In this document: positions 3,479 through 54,835 of the stretch, piece by piece | Layout of the letters: the number at the start of each line of letters is the position of its first letter | How positions within the stretch are numbered: position 1 is the stretch's first letter | NCBI GenBank assembly: GCA_001777575.1 | Contig: MFEL01000018.1 | Coordinates: 72,264-136,263, forward strand | Origin: Candidatus Doudnabacteria bacterium RIFCSPHIGHO2_01_FULL_46_24 | Lineage (GTDB): Bacteria > Patescibacteriota > Doudnabacteria > UBA920 > O2-02-FULL-48-8 | DNA length: 64,000 nucleotides | Direction of reading: 5' to 3' | The notes under the pieces: model-generated | Seen by the model: only the letters and a program-made list of their open reading frames with translations | Databases searched by the model: none | What the model was told of the DNA's origin: nothing | Made by a program: the position numbers and the translations under genes

Positions 3479-4433
3479 AACCTCTCATTATAATCACGGT
3501 TAAATAAAAAATATAAAACGCCACGAAAACTCCGCCTTCCCAACGCTCCAGCCGGTGGTGCTTACCAATAAACATCCAGCCGAACAGCAGCACTGCGGCG
3601 GCGGCGGCGATCATAATATCGAAGTTCAGATCGGAATTGAGGGGCAGCGGCCGGATGACCGAACTTAACCCCAGAATCAAAAAGACGTTGAAGATATTCG
3701 AACCCACGACATTGCCCACGGCTATATCCGGGCTTTTTTTGTATGCGGCAACCAGAGAGGTGGCCAGTTCCGGCAAGGATGTGCCCACGGCGACGATGGT
3801 CAAACCAATCAGGGCCTCGGATAGACCAAAGCTCTGGGCAATGCTAATCGCCCCGTTGACAATCCACTGGCCTCCGACCACCAACCCGAACAGGCCAAGT
3901 GCAATCATCCCGATGGAACGGAATAACGAATACTGCTTGGGATGAGCCAAAAACTCCTCGCCTTGGGCCTTGGCAATGCCAAAAGTGTAGTAAAGGAAAA
4001 TGATAAAGAAGGCCAATAAGGACAATCCATCGCTGCGCGTCAATAAATCAAAATCCATCCGGTCAACCAATCGGTCGTTGGCCATAAAAAACACCAAGGC
4101 AACGGCCAGCAAAGACAATGGAATCTCCTTCCAAACCGTGCCCTTGGTGACTTTCAGCGGGTAAATCACCGCTGCCAAGCCCAAGATAAATAACATGTTG
4201 ACGATATTGCTGCCAATGATATTGCCAACGGCGATGTCGGTATTGCCCTGCATGCTGGCAAAAATATTCACGAACAGTTCGGGTGCCGAAGTCCCGAATG
4301 CCACAATGGTCAATCCGATGACCAGATCTGAGACTCGCAGCCGCCGGGCAATGGAGGAAGCTCCGTCCACCAAAAGATCCGCGCCTTTGATCAGGACTGC
4401 AAAGCCTAGCAAAAACAAAGCGTAAGTAAGCAT
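3477..4433 (-). CDS. Ca2+/Na+ antiporter (CaCA family, YrbG-like)
   Basis: Duplicated alpha-repeat motifs GTSAPEL and GTSLPEL, and a multi-transmembrane 318-aa protein. Confidence 0.85.
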   Translation of the reverse strand: MLTYALFLLGFAVLIKGADLLVDGASSIARRLRVSDLVIGLTIVAFGTSAPELFVNIFASMQGNTDIAVGNIIGSNIVNMLFILGLAAVIYPLKVTKGTVWKEIPLSLLAVALVFFMANDRLVDRMDFDLLTRSDGLSLLAFFIIFLYYTFGIAKAQGEEFLAHPKQYSLFRSIGMIALGLFGLVVGGQWIVNGAISIAQSFGLSEALIGLTIVAVGTSLPELATSLVAAYKKSPDIAVGNVVGSNIFNVFLILGLSSVIRPLPLNSDLNFDIMIAAAAAVLLFGWMFIGKHHRLERWEGGVFVAFYIFYLTVIIMRG

Positions 4434-11276: not shown

Positions 11277-11351
11277 GGCCTCATCGTCTAATGGTCAGGA
11301 CACCACGCTTTCAATGTGGTAATCCGGGTTCGATTCCCGGTGGGGCTGCCA
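11277..11351 (+). tRNA. tRNA-Glu (anticodon UUC)
   Basis: The cloverleaf was folded by hand. Acceptor stem GGCCUCA pairs with UGGGGCU, with two G-U pairs. D-arm is CGUCUAAUGGUCAGGACA. Anticodon stem CCACG/UGUGG with loop CUUUCAA gives anticodon UUC. T-arm is CCGGG-UUCGAUU-CCCGG. Discriminator G and an encoded CCA follow. The architecture parallels E. coli tRNA-Glu. Confidence 0.8.
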
Positions 11352-12290: not shown

Positions 12291-12319
12291 TTGCGCGGCA
12301 ACTGATTCATCCGTATAAT
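12291..12319 (+). promoter_or_regulatory. promoter TTGCGC, 17-bp spacer, TATAAT upstream of the leader uORF of the PEBP gene
   Basis: -35 at 12291-12296 and -10 at 12314-12319. A second TATAAT lies at 12347-12352. Confidence 0.45.
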
Positions 12320-12362
12320 CCTTTCATATTAACTCTAGCCCTTCCATATAATTTGTCAAGCA

Positions 12363-12489
12363 ATGAATCCCGTTAGAAATTGGTTGCGCTTAATCGGTAA
12401 TAGGGCGCAATGATAATAATTTTAGTTAAGTCTAGATAGAGCATATTGCATATATTAAAGCCGGAGGTTAATCTATTTCTAACAGGATG
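12363..12489 (+). promoter_or_regulatory. leader module copy 1: uORF start ATGAATCCCGTTAGAAAT (MNPVRN...) plus its inverted complement ATTTCTAACAGGATG overlapping the main start codon
   Basis: The 5-prime arm is at 12363-12380 and the 3-prime arm at 12475-12489. The uORF 12363..12413 encodes 16 aa. The motif AATTTGTCAAG precedes it. A near-identical module lies at 46820-46946. Confidence 0.5.
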
Positions 12490-12945
12490 AAAATCACAAG
12501 CCCCGCGTTTGAGCACGGCGATATTATCCCCCAAACTTACACTTGCGACGGAATGGACATCAGCCCCCCGCTGTTGTTTATTGACGTCCCGAAAGAAGCC
12601 CAAAGCCTGGCCTTGATTATGGAAGACCCGGACGTGCCCAAGACCATCCGGCCGGACGGCTTGTGGGTGCATTGGCTGGTCTGGGACATGCCGTCGGACG
12701 TCGCGGAAATTCCGGAAGGAGTAGAAGCGCCAGGGGTGATTGGGCAGAATACTTCAGGCGAAGCGCGCTACCATGGCCCTTGTCCGCCCCAGGCCGAGCA
12801 TCGCTATTTCTTCAAGTTGTTCGCGCTGGATATAAATTTAACCGAAGCCCGCATCGCCAGCCGCGAGGATTTTTTCGCCGCCATGGCAGGACATATCTTG
12901 GCTGAAACGGAACTGATGGGCAAATACAACCGACAAAAAACATGA
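12487..12945 (+). CDS. YbhB/YbcL family protein (PEBP / Raf-kinase-inhibitor-like)
   Basis: 152-aa ORF with MEDPD(V)P...GLWVHWLVWDMP...YHGPCPP...HRYFFKLFALD, matching the bacterial PEBP family signature. Confidence 0.8.
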   Translation: MKITSPAFEHGDIIPQTYTCDGMDISPPLLFIDVPKEAQSLALIMEDPDVPKTIRPDGLWVHWLVWDMPSDVAEIPEGVEAPGVIGQNTSGEARYHGPCPPQAEHRYFFKLFALDINLTEARIASREDFFAAMAGHILAETELMGKYNRQKT

Positions 12946-30704: not shown

Positions 30705-30788
30705 GAGCGACTGCTTTAGATCAAGGTCCAACCTTGATCTAAGAATCATCTTTAGCTAAAGGTTGGACCTTTCGCTAAGAGCAGTCGC
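30705..30788. repeat. about 85-nt imperfect palindrome with mutually exclusive alternative hairpins, immediately upstream of the uvrB promoter
   Basis: Outer GCGACTGCT / AGCAGTCGC arms. Alternative inner stems are agatcaagg/ccttgatct (30718-30740) or aggtccaacctt/aaggttggacct (30724-30770). Confidence 0.5.
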
Positions 30789-42411: not shown

Positions 42412-42837
42412 ATGGTCCAAAGCTTTGAAAATCTCACGCTGAAGCAGGTGAAAAAACTGGCAGCGGACTTAAGTACGCAGCTTAATAACAGCAGAGCCAA
42501 GATCGGGCTGGTCGGAAGCTTAGGCAGCGGCAAGACAACTTTTGCCAAACAATTTGCCCACCGCTTAGGCCGGATCAGACTGAAAAGCCCGACGTTTACC
42601 GTAATTGACACGCATAAATTCGGAAAAAAAATTCTGCACCACATCGACTTATACCGCCTCCGCCATTATTCAGAGCTGCGGGCCATCGGATTTGAAGAAC
42701 TGCTTCAACCAAACACCGTGATTTTGATCGAGTGGGCGGATAAATTTAGGCAAGTAGCAAAACAGTGCGGCTTGCTGATTGAATTTAAGTTTACCCCACA
42801 ACACAATAGACGCGATGTCAAAATTACTTTTAAGTAG
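42412..42837 (+). CDS. tsaE: tRNA threonylcarbamoyladenosine biosynthesis ATPase TsaE (YjeE)
   Basis: GSLGSGKTTF P-loop, SPTFTVI, HIDLYRL, and IEWADKF motifs. Confidence 0.8.
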   Translation: MVQSFENLTLKQVKKLAADLSTQLNNSRAKIGLVGSLGSGKTTFAKQFAHRLGRIRLKSPTFTVIDTHKFGKKILHHIDLYRLRHYSELRAIGFEELLQPNTVILIEWADKFRQVAKQCGLLIEFKFTPQHNRRDVKITFK

Positions 42838-43909
42838 CATAATATTCGCCAGTCTTTTGCTGACGGCCCACAAAGCCGCAGCGGGGACAAATGACGCCGT
42901 CAGTATGCGCAACTGGGGGGCTGTTCAAACAGCCAAATTGGTTTTGCTAAACCAAGCCCCGCCAGCGCCACCCCTGCTTGACCCTGAGGAATTGAGTCAA
43001 ATTGAGGCGGTGGTGGCAGAAACCAATCAAAAAAGTGCCTCAGCCAAACTGGTCATCGAAAACGGACGCGCGGTGGAATTTGAGCGGGGCCAAAACGGCC
43101 AAAGCGTAGACGTATACGCGCTTTCTCAGCTGCTTATAAAACAAGCAGGTCTCGCCTTCGTCCCCATGTTCGTTTCCCAGCCAGCAGTTAACCTTGCCGA
43201 CACCAACAGCCTGGGCATTGCGGAACTCGTGGCCGTGGGCGAATCGGATTTTTCCGGCTCGCCCAAAAATCGGATTCACAACATCAAGGTCGGCAGCGCT
43301 AAATACAACGGCATTATCATCCAGCCAAGTCAAGAATTTTCTTTTAATAAATTCCTGGGCGACGTGGATGCGGAAAACGGCTTTTTGCCCGAGCTGGTGA
43401 TTAAGCGCACGGGTGTCGTGCCGGAATTCGGCGGTGGGCTCTGCCAGGTTTCCTCCACCGCGTTCCGGGCCGCCATGAATGCCGGCCTGCCGATTGTGGA
43501 ACGGCGGAACCATTCCTTTGCCGTTAAGTACTATGCCCCGCAAGGCACGGACGCCACTATTTATCCGGGTTCCACCGACCTGCGCTTCACCAATAATCTC
43601 TCCTCCCACCTTCTGATTTGGACACGAATCGAAGGCTATAAATTATACTATGATTTTTACGGAACCAAAGACGACCGGCTGGTTGAATTTGACGGCCCGA
43701 CCCAGTATGATAAAAAGGCGGACGGCTCCATGAAGGCGATCTGGACGAGGCACGTCAGCTTAAACGGCCAACAGAGCGAGCAAATCTTCAAAAGCACTTA
43801 TCTGCCGCCGGCCCTGTTCCATCCGGAAGAGCAGGCCACTACCCCAAACCCGCAAACGCCGCCGGAGCCTGCCGAAACTACACAACCCACACCAAACGAA
43901 CAGCCATGA
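42815..43909 (+). CDS. VanW-family protein with an N-terminal membrane anchor and a Pro/Thr-rich C-terminal tail
   Basis: GGGLCQVSSTAFRAA matches the VanW core. The start was set at the ATG at 42815 (MSKLLLSS...). The track ORF begins at 42779 and overlaps tsaE. Confidence 0.65.
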   Translation: MSKLLLSSIIFASLLLTAHKAAAGTNDAVSMRNWGAVQTAKLVLLNQAPPAPPLLDPEELSQIEAVVAETNQKSASAKLVIENGRAVEFERGQNGQSVDVYALSQLLIKQAGLAFVPMFVSQPAVNLADTNSLGIAELVAVGESDFSGSPKNRIHNIKVGSAKYNGIIIQPSQEFSFNKFLGDVDAENGFLPELVIKRTGVVPEFGGGLCQVSSTAFRAAMNAGLPIVERRNHSFAVKYYAPQGTDATIYPGSTDLRFTNNLSSHLLIWTRIEGYKLYYDFYGTKDDRLVEFDGPTQYDKKADGSMKAIWTRHVSLNGQQSEQIFKSTYLPPALFHPEEQATTPNPQTPPEPAETTQPTPNEQP

Positions 43910-43915
43910 CATTAA

Positions 43916-44989
43916 CTATCGCTCTGGTATGACAGCCGTGCCCGTTCTTTCAAAATACTCCCTATCAAAAACCAACTGAAGCAAATCTTGCTCCAAGCCA
44001 TGGCCATTGCAGTGCGTGAGCATACCCAAATACGATTGGATTGTCTGGATAAAAGATCCTTGACTTAATTGCCCGGCTTCAAATTTATTGCGGGCCAGTG
44101 CTATTTTTCTAAACATCCGCCTTTTAGTCTTATTTCTCAAGACTATATGATGGGGCAGAATTATATAGCCCAGAGAATCAATTCCTTGCCCAAATTTTCT
44201 GATCGATACTTTATCGGGGTGCAACGATAGCTGCAGTTCTTGCTGCAAAAGATGTTGAATGGTAGCGCACTGGTTTATCAGCTCGTGTTTATTCGACGAT
44301 AAAATTATAAAATCGTCAGCGTACCGAAAATAATGCCTGGCATGCAGCCGATGTTTAATAAACTGATCTAGTTCATTCAAATATATGTTGGCAAAAATCT
44401 GCGAGCTTAAATTCCCAATCGGAAGTCCTGTAACTCTCTCTCTCTCTCTTGAAAAATTATCCACAACAAAACTTTTAACAACCTCTTCAATTAGCCACAA
44501 AAAGTGTTTGTCGCTGATTTTATTTTTAATTATCTGCAACAGCTTCTGGTGAGAAACGCTGTAGAAAAACTTGTAGATGTCGCATTTGAGCGCAAATACA
44601 TTCCTGCTATTGTTGCGGCTTACCTTTCTTAAAGCGATTGCCAAATTATTAACAGCCAAATGCGTTCCCTTATCCAAACGGGAAGCATAGGAGTGGTAAA
44701 TAAATTTGGGGTCAAATATCCGATACAGTTCATTAAAAATCAGATGATGAACCAGGCGATCACGAACAGTCGCCTTGCTAATAACCCGGTGTTTCGGATC
44801 CCAAATATGGAAAGTAATATAAGGTCCGTGCCGATAAGTCTGATTCTCAAGTTGTCGGTGAAGTTCAAAAATATTATCTTCCAAGTGCCGCTCAAATTCC
44901 AAGACATCCCTCTTCTTTTGTTTCTCTTTCCTAAATTCGTCCCAGCATAAAAATAAATTATCAATATGCAAGAATTGCCTATTCTCCAT
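43916..44989 (-). CDS. DGR-type reverse transcriptase
   Basis: RT motifs are present, including LPIGNLSSQ (the DGR-specific I/LGxxxSQ form of motif 4) and YADDFIIL (motif 5). The N-terminus (CWDEFRKEKQKKRDV..TYRHGPYITFHIWDPKHRVISKATVRDRLVHH) matches the general DGR RT pattern. Confidence 0.85.
   Translation of the reverse strand: MENRQFLHIDNLFLCWDEFRKEKQKKRDVLEFERHLEDNIFELHRQLENQTYRHGPYITFHIWDPKHRVISKATVRDRLVHHLIFNELYRIFDPKFIYHSYASRLDKGTHLAVNNLAIALRKVSRNNSRNVFALKCDIYKFFYSVSHQKLLQIIKNKISDKHFLWLIEEVVKSFVVDNFSRERERVTGLPIGNLSSQIFANIYLNELDQFIKHRLHARHYFRYADDFIILSSNKHELINQCATIQHLLQQELQLSLHPDKVSIRKFGQGIDSLGYIILPHHIVLRNKTKRRMFRKIALARNKFEAGQLSQGSFIQTIQSYLGMLTHCNGHGLEQDLLQLVFDREYFERTGTAVIPER
44434..44449. 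repeat. (CT)8 dinucleotide simple-sequence repeat inside the RT coding sequence (encodes R-E-R-E-R on the minus strand)
   Basis: Read directly and cross-checked against the protein FSRERERVTG. Confidence 0.8.
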
Positions 44990-45304
44990 AAATTAACCGA
45001 ATTTTATAAAACATTTTATCTCTATCTCGCCTCTTTTCCTCAAAAGGATAAATATGCCCTTGGCGCCAAATGCGAAGGCTATATTATTTCAACTCTTGAA
45101 TTATTATTGGCAGCGGAATACGCCAGCAAAAATCAAAGGCTGCAACTAATACAGCAGGCTTCCGTCAAATTCGATATGCTTAAGTCTTTTATCCGTATCG
45201 CCAAGGAGCTGAAAATTCTGGATCAGAAAAAATACATCCGCCTGGAAGCGGAATTACAAGAGATCGGCCGCCAGCTGGGAGGCTGGCAGCGATCTTTGAG
45301 CTAA
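44966..45304 (+). CDS. Avd-like accessory variability determinant (four-helix-bundle protein)
   Basis: 112-aa ORF. Its C-terminus (..EIGRQLGGWQRSL) and the SFPQKDKYALGAK..ASKNQ segment resemble the general Avd/four-helix-bundle family pattern. The first 24 nt are shared with the RT start on the other strand. Confidence 0.75.
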   Translation: MQELPILHKLTEFYKTFYLYLASFPQKDKYALGAKCEGYIISTLELLLAAEYASKNQRLQLIQQASVKFDMLKSFIRIAKELKILDQKKYIRLEAELQEIGRQLGGWQRSLS

Positions 45305-45315
45305 AGCATAGACGC

Positions 45316-45437
45316 AACCCGAGGAGGCACACGCCGCCGGAGTAGTTGTCGTTGGCATTCAGATTCCTGTTGTCGAACTTCAACTTGTCGTCGTTGGCCT
45401 TGAAGTAGAGCGAGTGCTGCTTCGACTGCCAGAATTT
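45316..45437 (-). repeat. DGR template repeat (TR)
   Basis: Aligns with 45706-45827 at an offset of 390 nt. Plus-strand T (minus-strand A) in the TR corresponds to A, C or G in the VR at about 23 positions. There is one non-A difference (TR 45396, G versus A). Confidence 0.85.
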
Positions 45438-45621
45438 GTCTTTTTCCTTCCACTAGCACCGGAGAATAATTACTTATCCTCCTGAATTTCATTTCGTCCG
45501 CAATGGACGTTGAAAAAAGACAAGTAGTGTCTATACTTTTTGCATGTATAGGATTTCAGCGGCTTAAGTCCGTAAACTTAAGCGCATTAACCTACTTTCA
45601 AGAATAATTTTATAACAAAAG

Positions 45622-45672
45622 AAAAACGGGAGCAATCAAGGACTGCTCCCGTCCGGACTCCTCCGAGAGTCC
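45622..45672 (-). terminator. two hairpins downstream of the target gene and VR: GGACTC-ctccga-GAGTCC, and GGGAGCA-atcaaggac-TGCTCCC followed by a T-run on the minus strand
   Basis: Read directly. The second has terminator character. Hairpins immediately 3-prime of the VR are a known DGR feature. Confidence 0.5.
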
Positions 45673-45704
45673 AAAACCCAAAACCCGAGAAACCGACGAA
45701 TGCA

Positions 45705-46646
45705 CTACCCGAGGAGGCACACGCCGCCGGAGTAGTTGTCGTAGGCACACAGATCCCCGCAGCCGAACCACAACCGGTCGCCGAAAGCCCTGAAGTAGAG
45801 CGAGTGCTGCCCCGACTGCCAGAGCACTGCGGCACAGTCCAAACCCGGCGTCTGGTAATCGCGCGCCAGCACGTCTGGGTAGGTGGTCAGCGCTGCTGCC
45901 GGCTCGATGACCCCGCACAGCAACACGTCCGCAGGCAGCGTAGCCATCTGCTCCCGATCTGCCGGGATCGAAAATCCCTGCAGGCAGTTCGGGGAATAGC
46001 CCAGCACAACCGAACCTTCGGCCAGCTTGCGCAGCAGGCGGTTGTGGCTTTGGGCCACGACCTTGACCTGCTTGGCCAGTTCCCCTTCGCGGTAGTTCTT
46101 GAAGCTGCGCCCGGGAAATTGCTGCTCGTAAGCCCGCTTGACCCCGGCCAGCAGCTTGTCGTCGGTAAACTGGCCTAGATCGCCAATCTGCATTTTCGGC
46201 AACGCCAACGGCAACACCATGCCATGAGTAGGCAGGTTGGCCATGAGCGGATCAGTCGCGAGACGGCAGAGAATCGCCGCGAACCGCGCTTCGAACTCGT
46301 CAGCTGACATGAACGCGCTGCCGCCGAAGTGCTCCACGAACCGCTCGAGACGCGCCGCAAAGTCCACTTTCGGCTGGTCGAGGTAGAACGACCGGTTCGC
46401 ATCCACAGCCTTGGCCTTCATGCCTTGGGGTGGGATGCGACGGCCGTTGCTGTCGAACAGCGGTTTGATCGGCTCTTCCAGCACGAACTCGCCCGATTCG
46501 TTTTCCGTGTCTGGCTTGGTAATCTTGAAAACGAGCCTGCCGCTCTTCACGGCTAACGCGTTCTCATTACCGCCAAGGTTGCTGATGAGCGAGCGGTAGT
46601 CGTTCCCGCTCCAAGGCCCCAACGTTTCCCATTCTATGAGTTTCAT
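45705..46646 (-). CDS. DGR target (variable) protein; the VR occupies the last 40 codons or so
   Basis: 313-aa ORF. The C-terminus (..AYDNYSGGVCLLG) is encoded by the VR. The TR-encoded equivalent reads ..NANDNYSGGVCLLG, with Asn (AAC) codons at the varied positions. GGAGGA lies upstream of the ATG. No signal peptide is evident. Confidence 0.75.
   Translation of the reverse strand: MKLIEWETLGPWSGNDYRSLISNLGGNENALAVKSGRLVFKITKPDTENESGEFVLEEPIKPLFDSNGRRIPPQGMKAKAVDANRSFYLDQPKVDFAARLERFVEHFGGSAFMSADEFEARFAAILCRLATDPLMANLPTHGMVLPLALPKMQIGDLGQFTDDKLLAGVKRAYEQQFPGRSFKNYREGELAKQVKVVAQSHNRLLRKLAEGSVVLGYSPNCLQGFSIPADREQMATLPADVLLCGVIEPAAALTTYPDVLARDYQTPGLDCAAVLWQSGQHSLYFRAFGDRLWFGCGDLCAYDNYSGGVCLLG
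45706..45827 (-). repeat. DGR variable repeat (VR) at the 3-prime end of the target gene
   Basis: See the TR entry. Confidence 0.85.
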
Positions 46647-46768
46647 ATTTCCTCCTTCAGGCTAACTTGCCCGAAGAACATTTGCCCCTTATCCCGAGGC
46701 CCAGGGTCCGAGTTCTGTCGGAGCCGCAGTTGTCCCCCTGATTGCAGGACATCGTATCCTAGCCATTT

Positions 46769-46798
46769 TTGACGAATTTGTCAAGGCTGGGTTACAAT
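46769..46798 (+). promoter_or_regulatory. promoter TTGACG, 18-bp spacer, TACAAT overlapping the palindrome TTGACGAATTTGTCAA, upstream of leader module copy 2
   Basis: -35 at 46769-74 and -10 at 46793-98. The motif AATTTGTCAAG is shared with copy 1. Confidence 0.45.
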
Positions 46799-46819
46799 AC
46801 CAATAAGTATTCATCAACC

Positions 46820-46946
46820 ATGAATCCCGTTAGAAATAGGCCAACCTCTTCCTTTAATATAAGCTCGTTGTTTTATCAAAATTTAAGCAAAATTAATTAT
46901 CATCGCGCTTTGTTTCCGTTAAGCGCGGCTGATTTCTAACGGGATG
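46820..46946 (+). promoter_or_regulatory. leader module copy 2: uORF ATGAATCCCGTTAGAAAT... (39 aa, stop TAA inside the 3-prime arm) plus the inverted complement ATTTCTAACGGGATG overlapping the aminopeptidase start codon
   Basis: 5-prime arm at 46820-46837, 3-prime arm at 46932-46946, with a 14-nt perfect inverted repeat ATCCCGTTAGAAAT. Confidence 0.5.
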
Positions 46947-48188
46947 AAAAAAAATTACCAACCGCCCCAAATCATTCTTGACCGCTACGCCAAAGTTTTG
47001 GTGCGGTTTGCGCTGGGCGGCGGCAAGGGTATCAAAAAAGGCGATGTCGTGCGCGTTTCCAGCAGCGAATCCGGGCGCCAGCTGTATTTAGCCGTGTGCA
47101 ACGCCGTGATTGACGAAGGCGGCCACGTCCTGCCGCATTATTCGCCGGATGACGAACAAGGCGATAAGCGCCGCAACGAAAGCTTTACCCGATACTTCTA
47201 TGAACACGCGCAGGACCACCAGATGGATCACTTCCCGCATAAATATCTCAAGGGCTTGGTCGAGCAGATGGATCATTCAATTTTTATTCTGGCTGATGCC
47301 GACCCGCATGCGCTCAAAGGAGTCAATCCTAAAAAAATTATGCGCCGCGGCGTGGCCTTAAAGCCGTTCATGGACTGGCGGCACAAAAAAGAGTGGCAGG
47401 GCAGATTTACCTGGACCATTGCGCTTTATGGCACGCCGGCCATGGCCGCCGAAGCCGGCCTTTCCCCGAAAGCGTATTGGAACCAAATAATCAAGGCCTG
47501 CTTTCTTGACCAGAAAGATCCAATTGCGAAATGGAAAGATGTTTACCGGAAATTGGAACACTATCGCCGAGCGTTAAATCGGCTCTCGCCCCGAATTGAC
47601 CGGCTCCATGTTGTCGGGCCGGATGTCAATCTTTGGATCAAACCGGGCGAGAAAAGGCTGTGGCTGGGCGGCAGCGGCCGCAACATTCCCAGTTTTGAAC
47701 TGTTCACTTCTCCAGACTGGCGCGGCACTAAAGGTTGGATTCGGTTCAACCAGCCGCTTTATCGTTACGGCAGTAAGGTCACCGGCATTCAACTTTGGTT
47801 TGAAAACGGCCAGGTTATCAAAAGCCAGGCCAGAACAGGCGAAAAGCTGCTGAAAGAAATGATTGCCACGCCTGGCGCCAATAAGGTTGGAGAGTTCTCC
47901 TTAACCGACCGCCGCTTCAGCCGCATCACCAAGTTCATGGCCGAAACGCTGTTTGACGAAAACATGGGCGGGCCCCACGGCAACACCCACATCGCCCTGG
48001 GCATGTCTTACCGCGATACGTTCGACGGCAACGCCGCCAAACTTTCCAAAAAACAAGCCGAGGCCCTGGGGTTCAACGACTCGTCTGTCCATACCGACAT
48101 CATCTCCACCGCGCCCCGCACGGTCACGGCGCATCTGAAAAACGGCCAAGAAAAAATCATCTACAACCGCGGTCAGTTTGTCATCTAA
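46944..48188 (+). CDS. aminopeptidase, M29 family (AmpS/PepS-like)
   Basis: 414-aa ORF. Its length and conserved segments (GANKVGEFSLTD, HGNTHIALG, VHTDII) fit the M29 thermophilic metalloprotease family. Confidence 0.7.
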   Translation: MKKNYQPPQIILDRYAKVLVRFALGGGKGIKKGDVVRVSSSESGRQLYLAVCNAVIDEGGHVLPHYSPDDEQGDKRRNESFTRYFYEHAQDHQMDHFPHKYLKGLVEQMDHSIFILADADPHALKGVNPKKIMRRGVALKPFMDWRHKKEWQGRFTWTIALYGTPAMAAEAGLSPKAYWNQIIKACFLDQKDPIAKWKDVYRKLEHYRRALNRLSPRIDRLHVVGPDVNLWIKPGEKRLWLGGSGRNIPSFELFTSPDWRGTKGWIRFNQPLYRYGSKVTGIQLWFENGQVIKSQARTGEKLLKEMIATPGANKVGEFSLTDRRFSRITKFMAETLFDENMGGPHGNTHIALGMSYRDTFDGNAAKLSKKQAEALGFNDSSVHTDIISTAPRTVTAHLKNGQEKIIYNRGQFVI

Positions 48189-54771: not shown

Positions 54772-54835
54772 AATATCCTAGTATCTTGATATCCCAATAT
54801 CGATATTAGGATACTGAGATATTTAGATATTGACT

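Follow-up and report, generated by a model that had tools for sequence, protein, structure and literature searches.

The 64,000-nucleotide stretch of Candidatus Doudnabacteria bacterium RIFCSPHIGHO2_01_FULL_46_24 analyzed here (contig MFEL01000018.1, positions 72,264 to 136,263; hereafter, the window) contains, directly upstream of a PEBP/YbhB-family gene and of an M29 aminopeptidase gene, two copies of a short module in which a small upstream open reading frame (uORF) is combined with an inverted repeat that reaches into the start codon of the gene. An initial annotation of the window had read this module as a conserved leader that controls translation. Our analysis indicates that the two "leader modules" are very probably 120-bp members, devoid of an open reading frame (ORF) of their own and similar to MITEs (miniature transposable elements with inverted repeats), of a widespread family of very small inverted-repeat mobile elements. 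Insertion would then have produced both the uORF and the stem that covers the start codon, and these may still affect translation of the host gene. In the window copies themselves, the MITE-like features are the terminal inverted repeats, the fixed 4-bp target-site duplication, the length of 120 bp without a nuclease ORF, and the presence of empty sites in comparisons between species (Table 1).

Table 1. Coordinates of the two element copies, their uORFs and their host genes in the window.
Feature	Position	Strand	Size	Description
Promoter-like site of the PEBP transcription unit	12323..12352	+		TTCATA-18-TATAAT; consensus scan
uORF of copy 1	12363..12413	+	16 codons	MNPVRNWLRLIGNRAQ-stop; ATG 12363-12365, stop TGA 12411-12413
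Left target-site duplication, copy 1	12364..12367	+		TGAA
Copy 1 element	12368..12487	.	120 bp	MITE-like, non-autonomous
Terminal inverted repeats, copy 1	12368-12380 and 12475-12487		13 nt	TCCCGTTAGAAAT and ATTTCTAACAGGA; 1 mismatch
PEBP/YbhB-family host gene	12487..12945	+	152 aa	Begins at the rebuilt ATG; PF01161
Right target-site duplication, copy 1	12488..12491	+		TGAA; its TG completes the rebuilt PEBP start
Promoter-like site upstream of copy 2	46769..46798	+		TTGACG-18-TACAAT; consensus scan
uORF of copy 2	46820..46939	+	39 codons	MNPVRNRPTSSFNISSLFYQNLSKINYHRALFPLSAADF-stop; opens at the original aminopeptidase ATG, spans the whole element and closes at the TAA of the arm
Left target-site duplication, copy 2	46821..46824	+		TGAA
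Copy 2 element	46825..46944	.	120 bp	
Terminal inverted repeats, copy 2	46825-46837 and 46932-46944			Perfect
M29 aminopeptidase host gene	46944..48188	+	414 aa	Begins at the rebuilt ATG; PF02073
Right target-site duplication, copy 2	46945..46948	+		TGAA

At the PEBP gene (copy 1), the initial annotation had described a 16-codon uORF that opens with MNPVRN in a 5' arm, a 3' arm about 95 nt away that ends in the first two bases of the main ATG, a long-range stem between the two arms, and the same arms at a second locus; each of these descriptions is borne out. The codons that follow the uORF ATG are AAT CCC GTT AGA AAT, and these first codons lie inside AATCCCGTTAGAAAT (12366-12380), with the 5' arm itself spanning 12366/7-12380. 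Codons 2-6 are made up of the duplicated TGAA and the 5' arm, and comparison with empty sites identifies the uORF ATG as the former start codon of the PEBP gene, split from its gene by the insertion. The 3' arm, ATTTCTAACAGGAT, occupies 12475-12488, its terminal AT being bases 1-2 of the present PEBP start codon (12487-12489), of which the A is the terminal A of the element. The two arms, ATCCCGTTAGAAAT and ATTTCTAACAGGAT, are complementary at 13 of 14 positions, with one C.A mismatch, and lie 94 nt apart. The copy 1 uORF terminates 73 nt upstream of the PEBP ATG. The TATAAT -10 box upstream of copy 1 ends 10 nt before the original PEBP ATG, and the leader of this gene is therefore very short or absent.

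Copy 2, at the aminopeptidase gene, has perfect arms (14/14; 46824-46837 and 46932-46945) with the same 122-bp span and the same flanks as copy 1, namely ATGA on the left and GAAAA on the right, and it abuts the aminopeptidase ATG (46944). The stop of its uORF, TAA at 46937-46939, lies in the 3' arm and precedes the rebuilt ATG by 4 nt, and the TACAAT box upstream ends 21 nt before the original aminopeptidase ATG. Across the whole window, the arm 14-mer occurs four times when up to 2 mismatches are allowed, against 0.44 occurrences expected.

Orthologous loci show what these start regions look like when the element is missing. Six such loci in other Doudnabacteria lack it, and their junction reads ATGAAAA. 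None of four aminopeptidase orthologues, which are 80-87% identical and share the gene order TsaE-VanW-aminopeptidase-RuvB together with two small downstream genes, carries the element; the junction in one of them (L127) consists of CCAATAGCC joined to ATGAAAAAAAATTACCAACC, where the window has CAACC-ATGAA[T...A-TGAA]AAAAATTACCAACC. Likewise, two PEBP orthologues (74-77% identical, gene order PEBP-C39 peptidase-TsaD) are without the element, their junction (L251, for example) reading TCTAACT joined to ATGAAAATC, where the window has AAGCA-ATGAA[T...A-TGAA]AATCAC. Subtracting the element and one TGAA from the window yields the orthologous start exactly, at both genes. Closer to the window, six strain-level contigs (assemblies, not reads) that encode an identical aminopeptidase all carry copy 2, identical and in the same orientation; identical proteins are found in GCA_001777815.1, and NCBI's name for the identical PEBP protein gives the strain as RIFCSPLOWO2_02_FULL_48_8.

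The relation between the two window copies also bears on the nature of the module. When the 94-nt interior of copy 1 is set against copy 2 read as its reverse complement, 66 of 95 positions are identical (69%) and the score is 35, compared with -9.5 +/- 4.6 for shuffled sequences and -11 for the plus strand; on the same strand, agreement between the copies is limited to the arms. The arms differ at 1 of 28 nt and the interiors by 31%, and beyond the MNPVRN encoded by the arm the two uORFs, of 16 and 39 codons, are not conserved. Because the interiors are mutually inverted, the object is an inverted-repeat cassette present in both orientations, and neither the uORF nor the loop is conserved. 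Folded in silico, both leaders have a minimum-free-energy structure in which the long-range stem formed by the arms takes in the A and U of the main AUG (-39.1 kcal/mol, z -1.7, for copy 1; -37.1 kcal/mol, z -4.0, for copy 2). The pairing of the start codon has a simple composition, the A being the terminal purine of the element and the T the first base of the duplication, which pairs by chance with the last A of the left TGAA.

The initial annotation had suggested a wider search for further copies of the arm pair, and such copies are numerous. We scanned genome contigs (596 Gb) for exact arms of the pattern CCGTTAGAAAT...ATTTCTAACRG at a spacing of 80-110 nt and obtained at least 119 loci, compared with about 2-4 expected by chance according to our own calculation. 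Among the matches listed, the hosts of these short elements are mostly Patescibacteria (Saccharibacteria, Kaiser-, Yanofsky-, Giovannoni- and Doudnabacteria, Kazan and others), joined by Deltaproteobacteria/Thermodesulfobacteriota, Planctomycetota and Stahlbacteria. The same pattern had 0 matches in viral contigs, and a viral origin was set aside on this basis. An integron-type attC site was likewise rejected by reasoning from the sequence, as the arm order GTT...AAC is the reverse of that in attC and no integrase is present. Across the family, arm spacing ranges from about 20 to 290 bp. Rfam, applied to the whole window at the gathering threshold and to both loci at E<=1, returned only a tRNA at 11277-11348.

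The ends of the element, (T/C)CCCGTTAGA(A/G)AT ... AT(T/C)TCTAACGGG(A/G), are embedded in a constant architecture, N-[4 nt]-Y-CCCGTTAGA(A/G)AT ... AT(T/C)TCTAACGGG-R-[same 4 nt]. Of the 303 elements listed, 163 are flanked by a 4-nt direct repeat that is exact, where about 1.2 would be expected by chance, and the set shows no enrichment of flanking repeats 3 or 5 nt long; the duplication is therefore exactly 4 bp. The most frequent duplications are TGAA (73), TAAA (24), TGGA (15), TGAG (10) and TCAA/TTGA (10). Since the repeated 4 nt follow the second codon of the host gene (ATGAA, ATGGA, ATGAG, ATGCG), they represent duplicated host sequence, as opposed to element sequence. In 281 of the 303 elements listed, the two bases of the outermost Y:R pair complement each other (T:A or C:G). 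With regard to the arm covariance that the initial annotation proposed as a check, this outermost pair does covary; the result is not discriminating, because the terminal inverted repeats of a transposon would covary in the same way, and statistics on wobble pairs would be biased by search patterns that fixed the arm sequence. In several loci, elements stand in tandem or adjoin degraded older arms (L092 4586-4890, L079 ~3940-3965, L066 ~2939, L027 ~1185), the new copy sitting at the start codon rebuilt by an older one, an arrangement that indicates repeated insertion at one site.

Long versions of the element encode a nuclease. The first two, in loci L059 and L029, are about 276 bp in length and contain an ORF of ~85 aa that matches the Pfam GIY-YIG catalytic domain (PF01541, E 1e-16). 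A scan of metagenomes for exact arm pairs 240-270 nt apart gave at least 120 loci, and 109 of the 121 long elements listed (269-293 bp) contain a GIY-YIG ORF of 85-95 aa, similar to Slx1/UPF0213, that fills the element as its sole ORF. In an alignment of these proteins, the invariant columns are Tyr, Tyr-x-Gly, Arg, His and Glu. Searched against the Protein Data Bank (PDB), their profile matches only UPF0213 (1zg2, 4e-12; 1ywl) and SLX1 entries, not I-TevI or UvrC, and the NCBIfam model for group I intron endonucleases remains below its cut-off on them (29-31 vs 56 bits). A survey of the superfamily describes the bacterial Slx1-like branch as minimal, vertically inherited, non-selfish GIY-YIG proteins (PMC1564403).

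The coding sequence of this nuclease is fitted to the ends of the element. Its C-terminus is encoded by the 3' arm (...RLKRFLSLTG or ...FFxxDF / ...GASYL), and in 63 of 108 cases the duplicated target supplies the stop codon (TGA 48, TAA 15), the TGA there overlapping the rebuilt host start as ATGA; in 24 of 108 the stop is a TAA within the 3' arm, 4 nt before the host ATG. In 11 elements, the nuclease ORF starts at the ATG of the flanking host sequence and reads through the 5' arm (MNPVRD...); in ~70 long elements it starts at its own ATG, 13-28 nt inside. The MNPVRN of the window uORF thus corresponds to the arm-encoded N-terminal extension of the family nuclease fused to a host start codon. 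One locus (L093) displays the full arrangement: ATG-AGT-CCC-GTT-AGA... (MSPVRSQSKWYVYLL...GIY-YIG...), the TAA of the arm, and CGGG-ATG-AAG of the host ORF. Long and short elements co-occur in the same 8-kb loci (L029, L059, L093). The largest family of short elements (L009, L019, L023, L071, L078, L088, L115 and others) retains an open frame for a ~40-aa peptide with the core MxPVRNRGR...I(N/S)xNRIGFGR...ASASYF-stop, the tail of which (..NRIGFGR..ASASYF-stop) resembles the nuclease C-terminus ..SGMGKRYLKNRLGASYL-stop, and this peptide may be what is left of the nuclease C-terminus, or else a micro-protein of its own. A GIY-YIG ORF of the same family at L078 5250-5540 (minus strand) is bounded by a variant inverted repeat, CCCTGTTAAAT...ATTTAACAGGG; sister families with other ends probably exist. 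Further GIY-YIG ORFs, in L118 and L056, have no recognizable arms. In the 64-kb window, no GIY-YIG nuclease was detected by tblastn or by profile hmmsearch.

The position of the element relative to host genes is unusual. An ORF of 60 codons or more begins exactly at the R-TG on one side of 80 of the 135 short elements, and 65 of these 80 elements also keep an upstream start codon, an outcome in which insertion leaves the original A-TGNN on the left and creates on the right an (A/G)TG from the last base of the element and the duplicated TG. Most copies in Patescibacteria sit exactly at the start codon of the host gene, and copies in Deltaproteobacteria and Planctomycetes mostly lie between GTAAAC-type flanks, away from gene starts. 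Orientation is nearly fixed. Where short elements occupy gene starts and their interiors are significantly similar, 34 of 35 pairs point the same way relative to the host gene, the sole exception being the window's own pair; full-length elements at such starts run with the host gene in 48 cases and diverge from it in 1. The occupied ATG is preceded by a strong -10 box at a distance of 5-9 nt (commonly 6-7 nt) at 23 of 65 starts (35%), compared with 94 of 757 control genes in the same loci (12%; odds ratio 3.9, p = 6e-6), and at 48 of 138 when full-length elements are added. Elements away from gene starts have such a box at that distance in 13 of 160 cases, both strands tried; the link is therefore to start codons, leaderless ones especially, and not to transcription starts in general, and general targeting of transcription starts finds no support. 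In loci L001-L249 a strong box often ends 6-8 nt before the ATG, which suggests that many of these genes are leaderless and that the element prefers them. Capture of a Shine-Dalgarno sequence, whereby the hairpin would bring an upstream Shine-Dalgarno motif beside the downstream AUG, was rejected, as a weak motif-like 4-mer precedes the occupied start in only 8 of 65 cases.

These observations can be assembled into a mechanism in which the inverted repeat would serve at the DNA level, as a recognition or structural element of the mobile element, and would probably be cut as a hairpin or cruciform by a nuclease of the structure-specific type, a substrate that is attractive because the encoded nuclease is akin to structure-specific nucleases. 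As the window has no nuclease gene, its copies would have been mobilized in trans by a nuclease encoded elsewhere. By landing in the sense direction at a start codon, often that of a leaderless gene, the element would borrow the promoter and initiation site of the host free of charge, and ribosomes would be handed back to the host ORF at the stop/start junction through termination-reinitiation. Use of the host promoter, combined with this return, would explain why orientation is biased and why T-R-A targets, which supply a stop codon, are preferred. In the RNA, the arm stem would hide the rebuilt AUG, and ribosomes that initiate at the original AUG would read through the arms and melt it. Copy 2 retains this arrangement, in that the TAA of the arm closes its 39-codon uORF only 4 nt ahead of the ATG. 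Copy 1 departs from it, with an interior of opposite orientation and a 16-codon uORF that stops 73 nt upstream, and translation of PEBP is probably impaired or dependent on breathing of the stem; alternatively, the interior of copy 1 may have flipped after insertion. The proposal in the initial annotation that translation of the uORF melts the stem is accordingly plausible as a consequence of insertion, given the frame that is open in 30 of 80 short elements and their co-orientation with host genes, and does not fit the copy for which it was made, where the uORF stops 73 nt short of the ATG.

Taken further, the family may constitute a new class of prokaryotic transposable element and, at ~275-290 bp, the smallest autonomous one known, in which a bare Slx1-like GIY-YIG nuclease would act on the hairpin or cruciform formed by its own ends. 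Such an element would be a "start-codon parasite" that inserts at +2 to +5 of often leaderless genes, uses their promoter and ATG to express its nuclease, and hands translation back through an ATGA or TAA-N4-ATG junction made from its terminal purine and the duplicated TG(A), with the window copies as non-coding descendants that burden two host genes with a uORF and a stem. We advance this broader proposal tentatively, and regard its chances as somewhat below even.

A number of observations weigh against these interpretations and need to be considered alongside them. The case for insertion is one made between species, from target duplications, empty sites and dispersion, so that mobility is deduced from sequence comparison; within the population, no presence/absence polymorphism of copy 2 was seen among the six strain-level contigs, and the 69% likeness of the two copies gives no sign of recent activity in the window. 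The role of the nuclease in mobility is that of a candidate, and there may be a larger master element with the same ends, given that kilobase-spaced arm pairs were examined in the fetched loci only. In local alignments the window interiors match the 109 full-length elements at noise level in both orientations, and the derivation of the window copies therefore depends on shared ends, duplication and position. For the same reason, neither window copy can be assigned as sense or antisense; an early guess that copy 2 is "sense", from its ..ADF-stop tail, was dropped, since that tail is dictated by the arm. With respect to coupled translation, 30 of 80 short elements leave the uORF frame open along their whole length, and the other two sense frames are open in 5 and 10; among antisense frames the number is 16-25 of 80, the signal of uORF openness is modest, and the difference between sense and antisense (30 vs 18 of 80, p = 0.057) is marginal. 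The uORF is interrupted in 50 of 80 short elements, copy 1 included, and coupling is therefore not the general route by which host genes are expressed. Finally, the proportions reported refer to the matches listed in exact-arm searches, which are a biased sample; the ORF criterion is mechanical, and most loci belong to metagenome-assembled genomes.

Several other explanations were weighed against that of an inserted mobile element. The most serious rival is that a conventional transposase, of the DDE type for example, which our searches did not see, mobilizes elements of both sizes, and that the GIY-YIG ORF is cargo or an addiction-type stabilizer. A fixed 4-bp duplication is typical of DDE transposases, we know of no GIY-YIG enzyme that performs cut-and-paste transposition, and arm pairs at kilobase spacing were examined in the fetched loci only. 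In these ~250 loci, of which one scan covered the first 0.9 Mb, no DDE-type transposase was found between arm pairs 0.3-5 kb apart, which instead enclose ordinary genes such as RuvC and ribosomal proteins. The nuclease ORF is moreover fitted precisely to the ends, with arms that encode its termini and a stop in the arm or the duplication, a fit that is kept together with the catalytic residues in more than 100 diverged copies, and long and short forms co-occur. We therefore consider a hidden transposase unlikely, albeit less so than the other alternatives.

That the module is an evolved cis-regulatory leader, as the initial annotation held, would mean that the stem sequesters the AUG, that translation of the uORF melts it, and that PEBP and the aminopeptidase are controlled in a condition-dependent manner. 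Such a leader would account for a uORF that begins at the base of the stem, for a stem that is the minimum-free-energy structure of both leaders and covers the A and U of the AUG, and for arms much better conserved than the interior, a pattern that is equally expected of transposon ends. A conserved leader or attenuator does not accord with the absence of the module from orthologues of both genes at 74-87% identity, with TGAA duplications at both copies, with hundreds of copies spread over unrelated genes and sites outside genes, with versions that encode a nuclease, or with an interior, and hence a uORF and loop, that is inverted between the two copies; there is also no match to an Rfam family at either locus even at E<=1. 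We regard an evolved leader as quite improbable. The opposite orientation of the two interiors is what an inverton would produce, in which the inverted repeats are recombination sites, the interior flips to turn the gene on or off, and the window copies are caught in opposite states. The repeats do bound a short segment directly upstream of genes, and a flip after insertion could explain why copy 1 is the single exception to the orientation rule. Neither element, however, contains a promoter-like site in the consensus scan, no invertase or recombinase domain was found among the ORFs tested around both copies, copy 2 has one orientation in six independent assemblies, orientation to the host gene is nearly fixed across the family, and both target duplications and empty sites are foreign to invertons, which leaves this explanation with very little probability. 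We give almost no credence to a paired operator, two transcription-factor sites that loop the DNA over the promoter or start region: two identical inverted 14-bp sites at a constant 108-bp spacing at two loci would suit it, whereas the family-wide range of spacings, the hundreds of unrelated genes across phyla, the target duplications, the ORF that runs through the sites and the lack of an associated regulator gene would not.

The surroundings of the two copies contain several additional features. A diversity-generating retroelement lies directly upstream of copy 2 (43916-46646). It has a bAvd gene and, on the minus strand, a reverse transcriptase gene (43916-44989; PF00078), together with a template repeat (45317-45433). 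Its variable repeat (45707-45823) is located at the 3' end of the target gene, which encodes 313 aa on the minus strand (45705-46646); of the 19 mismatches between template and variable repeats, 18 are at plus-strand T, that is, at A of the coding strand. In four related Doudnabacteria (L126-L129), the VanW gene abuts or overlaps the start of the aminopeptidase gene, and in the window (42779-46944) the ~3-kb retroelement cassette and the 120-bp element separate VanW (42779-43909) from the aminopeptidase. Upstream of both copies, at unequal distances from the ATG, is the 11-mer AATTTGTCAAG (12350-12360 and 46775-46785), which on the minus strand gives a TTGACA -35-like hexamer of scanned promoter-like sites, possibly by coincidence. 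The tRNA gene that is the sole Rfam match in the window is located ~1 kb upstream of copy 1. Two palindromes have no relation to the element. At 30716-30778, an inverted repeat of 27 nt, 81% complementary, encloses a 9-nt loop, and at 54772-54831 there is an AT-rich overlapping palindrome of AATATC/GATATT units.

If the nuclease is indeed the mobility enzyme, the family would represent a class of transposons whose enzyme is neither DDE, HUH nor a recombinase, and would bring down the minimum size known for autonomous mobile DNA. Some of the UPF0213/Slx1-like family, until now seen as vertically inherited housekeeping proteins, would then be selfish. In the very compact genomes of Patescibacteria, a rebuilt start codon combined with coupled translation would let selfish DNA be nearly harmless by a route not described before. 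In metagenome-assembled genomes of the candidate phyla radiation (CPR), the element may also account for many leaders of the "uORF plus hairpin" type that are spurious and for errors in N-terminal gene calls, and its link to leaderless promoters could provide a handle on translation initiation in uncultivated bacteria.

Compared with known systems, the element is a MITE with an unusual partner, target and design, and it is apparently undescribed: we found no description of such an element in open-access papers and preprints. Like the bacterial MITEs Correia/NEMIS of Neisseria, RUP and MITEAba12, it is ~100-150 bp in length, has terminal inverted repeats, a fixed duplication and no transposase, and occurs in many dispersed copies that may be co-transcribed with their neighbors and form long hairpins in mRNA. 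Those MITEs derive from DDE insertion sequences, whereas the only coding relative here is a minimal GIY-YIG nuclease, insertion in Patescibacteria is overwhelmingly at start codons, and the terminal purine and the duplicated TG restore the start codon. The REPIN/RAYT system and palindromic elements derived from IS200/IS605 are similarly dispersed hairpins of ~100 bp, and they are mobilized in trans by one small nuclease-type enzyme, as is proposed here. In contrast to the present family, with its GIY-YIG protein, 4-bp duplication, identical ends across phyla and start-codon position, these depend on HUH (Y1) transposases, create no duplication, and are species-specific and extragenic.

The encoded nuclease invites comparison with GIY-YIG homing endonuclease genes (I-TevI, Seg, Mob), which are also selfish, have a GIY-YIG nuclease as their sole gene and spare the host gene. 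Homing endonucleases carry a DNA-binding domain and address one cognate allele through gene conversion, with neither inverted repeats nor duplications, whereas here a bare 85-95-aa domain of the Slx1/UPF0213 branch is associated with dozens of unrelated targets, inverted-repeat ends and 4-bp duplications. UPF0213/YhbQ and eukaryotic Slx1 are the only PDB matches of the nuclease, which keeps their Tyr, Arg and Glu positions; unlike them, the subset described here sits in a mobile cassette with inverted repeats and flanking duplications. With respect to the manner in which insertion is tolerated, the closest parallels are the byps, mobile translational bypass elements of Magnusiomyces mitochondria, and the Rickettsia palindromic elements, which are small palindromic mobile insertions in or at coding sequences that are likewise tolerated through translation and in which duplicated target bases give matched codons at both ends. 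Those elements lie within ORFs and are bypassed or read in frame, whereas the family described here occupies the start codon, and translation of the host gene would restart from the rebuilt ATG.

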